The notes under the pieces: generated by a model
Told to the model about the DNA's origin: nothing
Databases searched by the model: none
Seen by the model: the letters and a program-made list of their open reading frames with translations, nothing else
Assembly: GCF_001677475.2 (NCBI RefSeq)
Contig: NZ_CP015229.1
DNA from: Escherichia coli
GTDB taxonomy: Bacteria > Pseudomonadota > Gammaproteobacteria > Enterobacterales > Enterobacteriaceae
DNA length: 64,000 nucleotides
Direction: 5' to 3' (one strand)
Shown here: one piece after another, positions 5,758 through 10,954 of the stretch
Layout of the letters: each line of letters starts with the position of its first letter
How positions within the stretch are numbered: position 1 is the stretch's first letter
Made by a program: the position numbers and the translations under genes

Positions 5758-8730
5758 TTACCAGTGCACTCCAATGGTGAGAAACGCGTTGTTGCGCTCT
5801 CCGTTACGTTGATTAATCGCCTTAAAGGTATGTTGATACTCGACGCCGAGACTGACTTTGTGCGGCCAGGCGTCGTAGTGCGTTTCGCCGGTCCAGATAT
5901 TCCAGCGGACCCCGACACCGCCAAGCTGCGCGCCCTGAGTGCCTTTATCACGATAACCGTTGTCCTGAACGTGAGCGTAAGGCTCAATAGTCTGTCCGTT
6001 CGCCACCTTCTGATGCCAGCTTACGCGATAATCTGCCGTCCACGCCTGAATATCCTGGCGGACATATTGCGCCGCATCGAGGTACAGGTTTTGGGCAAAC
6101 CAGCCTGAACCGTTCGGGTGCCATTCGTCGCTGTATTTGCCGCCATTAAAGAATGAGGCGCTGGCGCGCAGCATGGTATCGGATGCGCCATTTTGCCCGT
6201 TCAGCGGCAACTGCTGTTCGACGGCGAGGAAAAAGATCTGATCGCGCAGCGGCTTCCAGCGCAGACCGGTGCCGGACATCGGATTTTTCACCGGCATCAT
6301 CACCCCGTTTTCTCCGGTATCGGCAAATACACGGCTGTAAGCCGAGAGCAGGTCGCCTTCCAGCAGCATATTGCGTCCGATGCGGTACTCGGCTTCCAGT
6401 TGCCCGTAGCTACGATAGCTTTTCCCTGGCGCTGCGCCGCCGACATTATTGTTAGCGGTACTCATTGCGCCGGAACGCAAGCCGATGGAAGAATCGAAAC
6501 TGAACGTCCAGCGGCGACCGACCTCCTCATGCAGACGGCGGAAATTGAAGCGTTGCTGATTTTGCTCTGGGGTCAGTGGGGTTATCAGCGCCTGATTATC
6601 AATGTCATCAATCACCAGCCGGGCGTAGTGCTGCGTCGCAGGCATGTCATCCAGACGCTGGTTCACGTAGGCCAGTTGTCGGATAAGTGCCGGATCGTCC
6701 GGTAGCCCTTTATGCGCCTGTTCGAGCATTTCCCGCGACTGTGCGATATCACCGCTATCCCACAAGGCGTAACCGAGCGCTGCCTGGGTGTTGCTATTAT
6801 TCGGTTCCAGTTCCAGAGCGGCGCGCAAATCACTCACCGCCGCCGGGACATTATGACGTTGGCGATAAATTGTCGCCCGCGCAACGTAAGCGTTGGCAGA
6901 AGGCGCAATATTGATTGAGCGCGTGAGATCGTTCAGTGCGAGTTCCGGCTGACCAGGAATGTAACGTTGCGCATGCAGCCACCAGTAGAGGGCATTGTTT
7001 CCCAGCCCACGTTGTTCTGCCTGCTGAAGCCAGCGATCGCGAGCCGCACCATTTCCTGCCGCCTGGGCGGTATTGGCAGCAGCAAGCAGATCCTCATTGC
7101 TCATGTCGTGAAGACTGATTTTCTGCCAGGCCGCCAGTGCGGTGGCGTAGTCCTCAACCTGATACGCCTGATAGGCTACCGCACGATGTTGCCAGGCGTT
7201 CGGTTGTCGTTGTTCGGCCTGAAGCCATGCATACAACGCCACACCGGGTAGCGTGTCCCGATAACACTTTGCCAGACGGTTCCAGGCGGCGGCATCGTAG
7301 GAAGGCGACATATCGCCCAGCAAGCGAACTATTGCCGGGCAATTATCTGCAATACCCGGCAACTGACTTTGCCACTGACGTTGCTCCGCCAGCGGTAAGG
7401 GTTTCGATAAAATCGCCACCTTCGCCGGAGTTGCCAGGTAAGGATGACTTTCCAGCAGAGACGCCAGTCGCGCCATTAAAGTCTGGCTGACACGCGCATC
7501 GCCCTGGAAAGGATAGCGTTGCAGCAATAAATCGGCAGCTTCGCGTGACTGCTCGTTCTGCATCAGTTGCCAGGTCAGTTGATCCAGGCGGGTAAGATTT
7601 GCCGGTTCTTGCTGATACAGCAATCGTGCCAGACGCAGAGCTTCAGCCTTGTTACGGGTCGCCACGCTAACGGTATAACGCTCCTCAAGCATTTCATTGG
7701 CGGGGAGGGTGGCGAGCAGTTTTTGCGCTGCGTCGTACTGACCTTCTTTTAACAGCACCGGTAGCGTCGCGCCAACAACATACTGGCGGTTGTCGGCAAA
7801 CTGTACTGTATAATTCGCCAACGCCTGAACGGGGTTGCCGCTGTATTTAGATAACAGATAGAGCCAACTTTTCTCTTGTGCGTCCGTGGTAAATAGCGGC
7901 GTATTTTCAATGAGATAATGCTGGAGGCGTGCTTTTTCGCCACGATAAGCCAGCGCGGTCGCGTAAGTAATATATGACTGAGGATCGGTGAAGATCCCCT
8001 GTGATTGCAGCGCCAGGATCCGATCGTCCAGCTGCCCGGCAAGAAGCACGTCAAACCACTGACGGCGTTCTGCCGCGCTTAATGTGTTCTGCTGGCGTGC
8101 TTCATTGTATAGCGTATCTGCCTGGGACCATTGTTTCAGGTAGATTGCCCGTTGCAGTAGATCGGTTCGCAGCGTTTTTCCTTCCGGCGATGCAGCAAAC
8201 GTCGCATCGTTCAGTTGCGCTCTGGCGACAGGTAATTGTGCCAGCCGCAGGGCATTCTGCCCGACTTCACTGCGACAACGCAGGGTCGGCGCAGCGTCGC
8301 ACGCTTTTTGCTGGGCAAGCAGTTCTTCAACAGTCGTAACGCTTTTCACTTCAACTGGAATAGCCGCCAGACTGCGCTCAAGTCGGGCATCTCCTGGGTG
8401 ACGTTTCAGTTGATCCTCAAGCAACAGCCGCGCCCGGTCATCATGACCAAAATGGCGATAGGCTTCCGCAAGGTATAAAGTCAGCGGAATATTATCCGGC
8501 ACCTGCTGGTGTATATATTCAAATTCGCGGATGGCGGTTGCTTCGTCGTTATTTTTCTGTGCCTTCAGCGCCTTGTCGAGACGGGGATAAATAACGAAAT
8601 GGCGATAATCGCTCAGCCCCAGCTCTTCTGCGCTGGTGCCGATATTGTCTGCGAGTGCGCTGGTACTCAATAAAGACGTCAGCAGTAAACCAGACCATCC
8701 GATGACGCGATTAAGGTTATTCTCCTTCAT
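5758..8730 (-). CDS. nfrA: Bacteriophage N4 adsorption protein A (outer membrane, TPR-containing)
   Basis: Start trimmed to MKENNLNRVIG (cat at 8728..8730); signal peptide; TPR-like repeats; about 990 aa; overlaps nfrB stop by 14 nt. Confidence 0.9.
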   Translation of the reverse strand: MKENNLNRVIGWSGLLLTSLLSTSALADNIGTSAEELGLSDYRHFVIYPRLDKALKAQKNNDEATAIREFEYIHQQVPDNIPLTLYLAEAYRHFGHDDRARLLLEDQLKRHPGDARLERSLAAIPVEVKSVTTVEELLAQQKACDAAPTLRCRSEVGQNALRLAQLPVARAQLNDATFAASPEGKTLRTDLLQRAIYLKQWSQADTLYNEARQQNTLSAAERRQWFDVLLAGQLDDRILALQSQGIFTDPQSYITYATALAYRGEKARLQHYLIENTPLFTTDAQEKSWLYLLSKYSGNPVQALANYTVQFADNRQYVVGATLPVLLKEGQYDAAQKLLATLPANEMLEERYTVSVATRNKAEALRLARLLYQQEPANLTRLDQLTWQLMQNEQSREAADLLLQRYPFQGDARVSQTLMARLASLLESHPYLATPAKVAILSKPLPLAEQRQWQSQLPGIADNCPAIVRLLGDMSPSYDAAAWNRLAKCYRDTLPGVALYAWLQAEQRQPNAWQHRAVAYQAYQVEDYATALAAWQKISLHDMSNEDLLAAANTAQAAGNGAARDRWLQQAEQRGLGNNALYWWLHAQRYIPGQPELALNDLTRSINIAPSANAYVARATIYRQRHNVPAAVSDLRAALELEPNNSNTQAALGYALWDSGDIAQSREMLEQAHKGLPDDPALIRQLAYVNQRLDDMPATQHYARLVIDDIDNQALITPLTPEQNQQRFNFRRLHEEVGRRWTFSFDSSIGLRSGAMSTANNNVGGAAPGKSYRSYGQLEAEYRIGRNMLLEGDLLSAYSRVFADTGENGVMMPVKNPMSGTGLRWKPLRDQIFFLAVEQQLPLNGQNGASDTMLRASASFFNGGKYSDEWHPNGSGWFAQNLYLDAAQYVRQDIQAWTADYRVSWHQKVANGQTIEPYAHVQDNGYRDKGTQGAQLGGVGVRWNIWTGETHYDAWPHKVSLGVEYQHTFKAINQRNGERNNAFLTIGVHW

Positions 8731-10954: not shown

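Follow-up and report, generated by a model that had tools for sequence, protein, structure and literature searches.

The window, a stretch of 64,000 nucleotides of E. coli DNA, very probably carries an intact chromosomal nfrB-nfrA-ybcH operon encoding a synthase-dependent exopolysaccharide system. We found three genes packed on the same strand. They encode an inner-membrane family-2 synthase with a c-di-GMP receptor, an outer-membrane exporter composed of TPRs and a barrel, and a periplasmic protein that may be an accessory factor or a hydrolase, i.e. the combination characterising synthase-dependent secretion systems. This is an ordinary, well-known E. coli operon and nothing in the region is new. 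This analysis itself established what the genes are and that they are intact, which domains and which catalytic and c-di-GMP-binding residues they encode, how tightly the operon is packed, that the genes are under purifying selection and how frequent the locus is in E. coli; the K-12 literature supplies the binding of c-di-GMP, the requirement for an active glycosyltransferase, the dependence on DgcJ and WecB and the operon structure, the operon status having been shown in K-12 (PMC8669469).

10955-11103, minus strand: intergenic region upstream of nfrB, 149 nt, presumed promoter region
8717-10954, minus strand: nfrB, GTG start, 745 aa, c-di-GMP-activated family-2 glycosyltransferase (predicted inner-membrane polysaccharide synthase)
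8717-8730, minus strand: 14-nt overlap of nfrB stop and nfrA start, ATGAAGGAGAATAA
5758-8730, minus strand: nfrA, 990 aa, outer-membrane TPR/beta-barrel exopolysaccharide export protein and probable N4 (gp65) receptor
4867-5757, minus strand: ybcH, last of the three operon genes, DUF4434 protein of the periplasm, 296 aa
4830-4856, minus strand: hairpin GGTAAGTCGGGTACGACCTGACTTACC, 11 nt 3' of the ybcH stop, from RNA folding

Gene identity, integrity and flanking sequence

NfrB matches the NCBIfam equivalog NF008411 with 1332.7 bits (cut-off 1170; profile positions 1-722 of 723) and NfrA matches NF007302 with 1888.7 bits (cut-off 1223; positions 1-990 of 990). BLASTP against the K-12 MG1655 proteins, an alignment that a first-pass annotation of this locus had proposed, is gap-free with 745/745 identical residues for NfrB and 980/990 (99.0%; 10 substitutions) for NfrA, and neither the ORF translations nor the K-12 alignments contain a frameshift or internal stop in the two genes. 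This bears out the identities and the full length which that annotation had assigned to both genes. The span it gave, 5758-10954, has exactly the stop codon of nfrA at one end and the start codon of nfrB at the other, without mention that both genes lie on the minus strand; the nfrA-nfrB pair stands, but by omitting ybcH the annotation described a transcription unit one gene too short. The ATG of ybcH directly abuts the nfrA stop codon (TAAATG), and YbcH shares 97.6% protein identity with its K-12 counterpart (7 substitutions).

Across all three genes there are 106 nucleotide differences from K-12, most of them synonymous, resulting in dN/dS values of 0 for nfrB (31 synonymous and 0 non-synonymous differences), 0.077 for nfrA and 0.104 for ybcH, showing strong purifying selection on all three genes. 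The values for nfrB and nfrA, together with equivalog scores far above the cut-offs, show that the two reading frames are not a chance ORF pair. A 9-kb stretch (2758-11730) has 100% base identity to the independent public E. coli assembly GCA_019142445.1, and the exact NfrA and NfrB proteins are recorded on 52 and at least 1000 contigs in public data, respectively. The locus is present in 5227 of 5426 complete E. coli genomes, contiguous in 5043 of these (about 93%), a contiguous copy being absent from about 7%, in agreement with its earlier description as not novel. The synteny argU-envY-ybcH-nfrA-nfrB-cusSR-cusCFBA matches K-12 and strain 19KM1831, and the K-12 genes nfrBA-ybcH (b0569-b0567; Junkermeier & Hengge 2021; Sellner et al. 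2021) have the same order, lengths, start codons, overlap and flanks (envY, cusS); downstream of the operon, beyond envY, the two differ, since K-12 has the DLP12 prophage (with ompT and appY) inserted between argU and envY and the window lacks it.

Reading of the sequence confirmed the 14-nt overlap of nfrB and nfrA, which the first-pass annotation had reported and which equals the 14 bp published for K-12 (PMC8669469). Translational coupling of the two genes via this overlap is plausible, since a Shine-Dalgarno sequence (GGAG) lies within nfrB, 7 nt 5' of the nfrA ATG. We place the nfrA start at the ATG at 8730 because the K-12 annotation agrees, the GGAG is found 7 nt upstream and the signal peptide MKENNLNRVIGWSGLLLTSLLSTSALA follows directly. 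A 997-aa ORF (5758-8751, minus strand) with a TTG start at 8751 is the mechanically longest reading frame and was dropped as nfrA start.

The intergenic region upstream of nfrB is identical to that of K-12 except for 2 nt beside the cusS stop. A sigma-70 pattern scan of 10955-11103 returned nothing, overall matches being no more frequent than in shuffles, and a sigma-28 scan (TAAAGTTT-N11-GCCGATAA) upstream of nfrB gave as best hit 11/16 matches located inside cusS, so we claim no promoter; in K-12 nfr expression is FliA-dependent (PMC8669469). The hairpin downstream of ybcH has a folding energy of -19 kcal/mol (z -4.1), with 0 of 200 shuffles equally stable. It was not flagged in a terminator pattern scan and is a possible operon terminator with a weak U tract.

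Domain content of NfrB and NfrA

9809-10747, minus strand: NfrB glycosyltransferase-2 domain (aa 70-382), Pfam PF13632/PF13641 (Glyco_trans_2_3), E 2e-40 and 3.5e-35
9071-9499, minus strand: NfrB MshEN c-di-GMP-binding region (aa 486-628), NCBIfam and Pfam matches, sequence matches to PDB entries
8650-8730, minus strand: NfrA signal peptide (aa 1-27, ...STSALA/DN), from sequence and low model pLDDT over aa 1-29
6523-8610, minus strand: NfrA periplasmic all-helical TPR-like solenoid (aa 41-736), predicted by the AF2 model
5761-6510, minus strand: NfrA beta-barrel at the C-terminus (aa 741-990), modelled by AF2 as 12-stranded over aa 741-989

The translation of nfrB contains all active-site signatures of the glycosyltransferase family, i.e. 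DxD, TED and QxxRW (HD169AED, T265-E-D267 and Q326-K-S-R-W330), and in K-12 NfrB the exchanges D169A, D267A and W330A each abolish N4 plating (PMC8669469). The c-di-GMP-binding region is recognised by the NCBIfam c-di-GMP_motif profile (66.4 bits, cut-off 38, aa 489-540) and by Pfam MshEN (52.9 bits, cut-off 23.1, aa 542-628), with tandem 24-residue motifs beginning at aa 488 and 516 and with L490, G491 and L537 all present. By sequence, aa 486-628 match the solved MshEN domains of MshE, PilF and PilB with E-values from 6e-17 to 2e-5, the domain being fused to a glycosyltransferase in NfrB and to a secretion or pilus ATPase in MshE/PilF/PilB. For the identical protein fragment 414-745 of K-12 NfrB a Kd of 1 uM for c-di-GMP was measured, and K-12 NfrB point mutants in the glycosyltransferase site or in the MshEN domain abolish or reduce N4 plating at unchanged NfrB levels (PMC8669469). 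A possible second MshEN-like tandem lies at aa 660-714, a regular expression giving a third core motif at aa 692; BLASTP of this region against the known MshEN tandem of NfrB produced no alignment.

NfrA combines a signal peptide, a periplasmic TPR region and a C-terminal barrel. A classical signal sequence was stated for K-12 NfrA (PMC8669469), Pfam TPR profiles match, Pfam NfrA_C covers aa 809-977 (E 1.4e-67) and the C-terminal end is aromatic (...GVHW). The AF2 model has an overall pLDDT of 84.6, with about 65-89 in the barrel. NfrA was described as a 16-stranded pore resembling PgaA and BcsC (PMC8669472). Contrary to this, the barrel models as 12-stranded and similar to KdgM-type porins, the nearest solved barrels being those of KdgM, PcoB and the autotransporter types. 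When the NfrA profile was aligned by hhalign with PgaA and BcsC of E. coli, the matches were confined to the TPR region and no barrel homology emerged.

Phage reception and N4 sensitivity

The two 2021 mBio papers describe NfrB as an inner-membrane family-2 glycosyltransferase activated by c-di-GMP, not as a receptor, and NfrA as an outer-membrane TPR/beta-barrel exporter that is probably the terminal receptor, with the exported ManNAc-based glycan NGR as initial phage receptor (PMC8669469, PMC8669472). The ManNAc content was deduced from wecB genetics, N4 susceptibility requiring wecB but not the remaining ECA pathway (PMC8669472). This supports a model according to which NfrB would be located in the inner membrane and the polymer would pass the periplasm, with YbcH as a periplasmic accessory protein, and exit via NfrA, whose TPR solenoid is joined at the C-terminal end to a beta-barrel in the outer membrane. 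The surface-attached NGR would then act as initial receptor for N4, Vequintavirinae and phi92-like phages, and NfrA, to which the N4 sheath protein gp65 binds, would be the likely terminal receptor. The first-pass annotation's gene names fit this model; its term phage receptor genes reflects the view of 1989-1993, since NfrB is a glycosyltransferase and the initial receptor is its glycan.

With its intact operon this strain may be sensitive to N4, and it can be regarded as a candidate host of phages that get past the O-antigen, namely N4, Enquatrovirus, Vequintavirinae and phi92-like phages. The literature also records a naturally occurring nfrA nonsense mutant with resistance to NGR phages. 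The relevance of the locus to phage susceptibility, as noted in the first annotation, holds in this sense, but intact nfrA and nfrB alone are no predictor, since for N4 sensitivity a cell must also have two unlinked genes, wecB and dgcJ, and be in a c-di-GMP state that permits infection (PMC8669469, PMC8669472). The nfr status is thus useful for phage choice and host-range prediction only alongside the state of dgcJ, wecB and pdeL.

That the locus is intact but silent, with NGR not being displayed in this strain under relevant conditions due to a dgcJ or wecB defect, high PdeL or PdeH activity, low expression or masking by a capsule, is the alternative to be taken most seriously, and we give it roughly one chance in four; the locus would then carry no information on phage susceptibility. 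The genes dgcJ, wecB and pdeL and those for O-antigen and capsule all lie outside the window, and expression of nfr in K-12 is low, transient, temperature dependent and reliant on DgcJ-derived c-di-GMP (PMC8669469); PdeL gives full protection, and E. coli B strains and others have lesions in nfrB or dgcJ (PMC8669472). The strong purifying selection on the three genes and the near-identity of the upstream region to K-12 point, however, to an operon in use. Moreover, O-antigen is bypassed by NGR phages, and N4 infects UTI89 despite the O-antigen and capsule of that strain, the infection depending on wecB (PMC8669472).

Much less probable, to a degree that we consider it very unlikely, is the classical two-protein receptor, in which NfrA and NfrB themselves form the N4 receptor and entry apparatus and a polysaccharide is uninvolved. 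It goes back to historical genetics, summarised in PMC8669469, according to which mutation of nfrA or nfrB prevents adsorption and NfrA is bound by gp65; the NCBIfam name of NfrA is still 'phage receptor', and a 2025 N4 structure paper allows NfrA, NGR or both as trigger for gp65 (PMC12633501). This reading is difficult to reconcile with a complete family-2 glycosyltransferase site and a MshEN c-di-GMP domain in NfrB, with NfrB point mutants, among them the catalytically dead D169A, D267A and W330A of K-12, abolishing or reducing N4 plating at normal protein levels and with the requirement for wecB (PMC8669469, PMC8669472), an inner-membrane protein moreover being out of reach for an adsorbing virion. 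A cryptic pseudogene or assembly artefact, i.e. a decaying remnant or hidden sequencing error, was rejected and has next to no probability: other genomes often have disrupted alleles (IS1 insertions, nfrB-nfrA fusion ORFs, NfrA-VgrG/Rhs fusions, truncations and deletions) and a natural nfrA nonsense allele occurs in an O157:H7 strain, but the ORFs here are collinear and gap-free against K-12 with overwhelmingly synonymous differences, and the exact proteins and the 9-kb stretch recur in independent public data.

YbcH and relation to other secretion systems

YbcH is a full-length member of the DUF4434 family (Pfam PF14488, 232.2 bits, cut-off 30; NCBIfam NF007404, 520.4 bits, cut-off 344). In the model it folds into a TIM barrel like that of glycoside hydrolases, and two glutamates that are invariant in the family lie on strands 4 and 7. 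We compared it with clan GH-A ('4/7') of retaining glycoside hydrolases, whose (beta/alpha)8 barrel has conserved carboxylates where strand 4 (acid/base, usually Asn-Glu) and strand 7 (nucleophile) end C-terminally; YbcH has Ala-Glu instead of the typical Asn-Glu, and distant homologues have Glu-Glu. Searches of YbcH against solved structures, as single sequence and as profile, matched no solved hydrolase, an hhalign comparison with PgaB gave no match and a literature search on DUF4434 gave no paper on the family among those listed; with sequence and profile searches empty, the fold and the residue conservation are what links YbcH to hydrolases. On these grounds YbcH is a putative glycoside hydrolase that may act on the polymer. 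In K-12 ybcH is dispensable for N4 plating (PMC8669469), and an RB-TnSeq preprint reports only a partial contribution to N4 infection. Deletion of ybcH likewise has a partial phenotype in a motility-suppression assay in the pdeH ycgR background.

Among the closest known systems are the Pga system of E. coli (PgaABCD, poly-beta-1,6-GlcNAc) and the cellulose system Bcs (BcsA/B/Z/C). The latter shares with Nfr a processive family-2 synthase (D, TED, QxxRW), activation by c-di-GMP, an exporter built of TPRs and a barrel (BcsC) and a glycoside hydrolase in the periplasm (BcsZ). BcsZ belongs to GH8 and is not a TIM barrel. The c-di-GMP domain is PilZ in BcsA and MshEN in NfrB, BLASTP aligning only the TED segment of the two synthases; the match of BcsC to NfrA is confined to one TPR stretch, and the E. 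coli nfr operon has no BcsB homologue. The Bcs system is uninvolved in N4 infection (RB-TnSeq preprint). The KdgM/GalP oligosaccharide porins and other 12-stranded outer-membrane barrels (PcoB, autotransporter beta-domains) have 4-9% identity to NfrA and no TPR domain, their likeness to NfrA resting on the predicted model.

These comparisons suggest, tentatively and with somewhat less than even probability, that Nfr might be a structural class of its own among synthase-dependent exopolysaccharide systems. In it NfrA would end in a small 12-stranded barrel of the KdgM/autotransporter type in place of the published 16-stranded PgaA/BcsC type, and YbcH would be no passive scaffold but an active periplasmic glycoside hydrolase using E144 and E245; it would be the first characterised representative of a new hydrolase family, with the ManNAc polymer NGR as substrate. 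This reading of barrel and hydrolase is not specific to the window and would hold equally for K-12, and the YbcH fold and the NfrA barrel model could aid work on NGR chemistry and its export route.

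The intact nfrB-nfrA-ybcH operon

The first-pass annotation had described full-length phage N4 receptor genes nfrA and nfrB, overlapping by 14 nt, at 5758-10954. We found the locus to be correctly spotted, correctly named and already fully known. Two long ORFs exactly fill this interval, both lying on the minus strand, which had been left unsaid, and the third gene of the operon, ybcH, had been omitted:

8717-10954, minus strand: nfrB, 745 aa, GTG start (ORF table)
5758-8751, minus strand: nfrA as longest ORF, 997 aa, TTG start (ORF table)
4867-5757, minus strand: ybcH, 296 aa, DUF4434 (YbcH family)

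The TTG at 8751 merely opens the mechanically longest ORF and was rejected as nfrA start, the annotated start in K-12 (MG1655) and in the best-matching RefSeq genome being an ATG seven codons further in, at 8730 in the window, resulting in a protein of 990 aa. A GGAG stands 7 nt upstream of this ATG, and the protein opens directly with MKENNLNRVIGWSGLLLTSLLSTSALA, a typical signal peptide. The two genes overlap by the 14 nt ATGAAGGAGAATAA at 8717-8730, from the nfrA start to the nfrB stop, as claimed and as published for K-12 (Junkermeier & Hengge 2021, PMC8669469), and nfrA is joined to ybcH by TAAATG.

Both receptor genes are indeed full length, showing gap-free BLASTP alignments to MG1655 (NfrB 745/745 and NfrA 980/990 residues identical), no internal stops in nfrA or nfrB and NCBIfam equivalog scores of 1332.7 (cut-off 1170) for NfrB and 1888.7 (cut-off 1223) for NfrA; YbcH is identical to its K-12 counterpart at 289 of 296 positions. 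All 31 nucleotide differences between nfrB and its K-12 counterpart are synonymous, nfrA has 49 with 10 amino-acid changes (dN/dS 0.077) and ybcH 26 with seven (dN/dS 0.10). That the locus is not novel, as had been stated, is borne out by public data, which contain the exact sequences of all three proteins and, in ABBDOW010000002.1 of GCA_019142445.1, a stretch 100% identical over 8973 nt to 2758-11730 of the window.

In K-12, nfrBA-ybcH forms a single three-gene operon with low, post-exponential expression that depends on FlhDC and FliA and is stronger at 37 °C compared with 28 °C (PMC8669469). The 149-nt region upstream of nfrB equals that of K-12 except for two bases adjoining the cusS stop, and our searches there gave no convincing promoter of the sigma-70 or sigma-28 type. 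A stable hairpin at 4830-4856, 11 nt after the ybcH stop (-19 kcal/mol, z -4.1), is only a candidate for the operon terminator because of its weak U tract. envY follows after 182 nt; between the argU tRNA-Arg(UCU) gene at 3801-3877 and its beginning lie 46 nt (interval 3801-3923). The K-12 cryptic prophage DLP12 (21 kb; intD, appY, ompT) is absent here and likewise from 19KM1831, a strain with K-12-like synteny at the locus.

Of 5426 complete E. coli genomes, 5227 gave a megablast match to the locus (best identity 99.4%), 5043 of them in a single contiguous place; the intact copy is the majority state, about 93%. Disruption of nfrA recurs across other E. coli strains, where damaged versions comprise insertion of IS1, fusion of nfrB and nfrA into one ORF of 1332-1360 aa, chimeras of NfrA with type VI secretion sequences (VgrG or Rhs), and partial or near-complete deletions adjoining a type VI secretion gene (tssI/vgrG). 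Every E. coli B strain has lesions in nfrB or dgcJ (Sellner et al. 2021, PMC8669472).

NfrB and the reception of phage N4

NfrB contains a family-2 glycosyltransferase domain (aa 70-382, Pfam E 2e-40) with the residues D169, T265-E-D267 and Q326-x-x-R-W330, and a C-terminal region of the c-di-GMP-binding MshEN type (NCBIfam c-di-GMP motif aa 489-540; Pfam MshEN aa 542-628), which has sequence matches among solved structures to the c-di-GMP-binding domains of PilF, PilB and MshE. At aa 692-711 we observed a third MshEN-like core motif, LGKFLVTEGVISQETLDRVL, and some 30 residues before it a degenerate copy (window 8810-8975, aa 660-714), possibly a second c-di-GMP half-site; two stretches of NfrB are recognised by the NCBIfam c-di-GMP_motif model, and BLASTP of the MshEN region against aa 660-714 gave no alignment.

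As NfrB is identical to that of K-12, the biochemical results published for the K-12 protein hold for it directly. Fragment 414-745 binds c-di-GMP (Kd ~1 µM), exchanges D169A, D267A and W330A abolish N4 plating and L490A, G491L and L537A reduce it, DgcJ acts as dedicated, NfrB-binding cyclase, and wecB is needed with the remaining ECA pathway being dispensable (PMC8669469). Both 2021 papers conclude that NfrB produces a ManNAc-based exopolysaccharide, NGR, exported by NfrA, NGR being the initial and NfrA the final receptor (PMC8669469, PMC8669472). The gene names given earlier are right, but the designation as receptor gene is out of date where nfrB is concerned. The two-step model is retained in the 2025 paper on the N4 virion structure, which has gp66 appendages bind NGR and the gp65 sheath bind NfrA, and concedes that either NfrA or NGR, or the two together, could be the trigger (PMC12633501). 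NGR was also reported as receptor for Vequintavirinae, phi92-like phages and Enquatrovirus, by which the O-antigen is bypassed, and a natural nfrA nonsense allele of an O157:H7 strain blocks most NGR-dependent phages. The suggested relevance for phage susceptibility is thus supported, but the unlinked genes dgcJ, dgcQ, wecB and pdeL, outside the window, also count.

Structural models of NfrA and YbcH

The residual novelty is confined to two structure-based points, the YbcH fold and the NfrA barrel, neither being specific to this genome. The AlphaFold2 model of NfrA (37 homologues, pLDDT 84.6) comprises a helical TPR-like solenoid (aa 41-736) and a C-terminal barrel of about aa 741-990 (window 5761-6510), to which DSSP assigns 12 strands, each showing an amphipathic beta signature when the family is aligned. 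This conflicts with the published description as a barrel of 16 strands similar to PgaA or BcsC (PMC8669472). The longest remaining barrel loop has 17 residues, therefore leaving no room for four more transmembrane strands in the model. The neighbours of the modelled barrel are KdgM, PcoB and autotransporter-type barrels, and in profile comparisons with E. coli PgaA and BcsC the TPR segments alone align. Judging from the model, we would not file NfrA in the PgaA/BcsC barrel family. The Nfr system resembles Pga and Bcs in working outline, NfrB aligning only marginally with BcsA and PgaC, around the glycosyltransferase core.

YbcH was described as a putative periplasmic scaffold; it is dispensable for N4 plating (PMC8669469) and contributes partially to the published motility phenotype and RB-TnSeq fitness. 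Its AlphaFold2 model is confident (42 homologues, pLDDT 92.5, pTM 0.89) and adopts an eight-fold beta/alpha barrel of the glycoside-hydrolase-like TIM type. E144 (codon 5326-5328) is on strand 4 and E245 (codon 5023-5025) where strand 7 ends, which are the acid/base and nucleophile positions of the '4/7' superfamily. Both glutamates are invariant among the 42 close homologues and still belong to only nine invariant columns across 51 representatives (23-44% identity) taken from 1.8 billion searched proteins. The residue preceding E144 is Ala or Glu, not the usual Asn, and sequence-level searches against solved enzymes gave no match. As synthase-dependent systems as a rule have a hydrolase or lyase in the periplasm (such as BcsZ, PgaB-C, PslG, PelA or AlgL), we infer YbcH to be the putative hydrolase of the Nfr system.

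Further observations in the window

At 25258-26191 the hokE/sokE type I toxin-antitoxin locus is tandemly duplicated (period ~504 nt, 97% identity), with two Rfam 'sok' matches (25326-25481; 25829-25985) accompanied by a pair of intact Hok ORFs of 50 aa. In K-12 the locus is single and IS186B follows it; the window lacks IS186. The duplicated form is common, at least 80% being covered in one place in 3544 of the 5426 complete E. coli genomes, annotated as two hokE genes. K-12 ybdR and yldA (~1.6 kb, uspG-rnk interval) are missing, the interval holding instead ~277 nt at 58559-58836 with no match in the K-12 regions compared. Where entS and fepB converge there are about 90 nt more (40340-40431), and ~184 nt that K-12 has between fepB and entC are lacking (about 41417); both probably reflect REP-type intergenic elements. 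Gathering-level Rfam matches to the rnk leader (59352-59460) and the sRNAs STnc70 (55380-55473) and ES036 (26930-26971) represent common enterobacterial elements in their normal positions.
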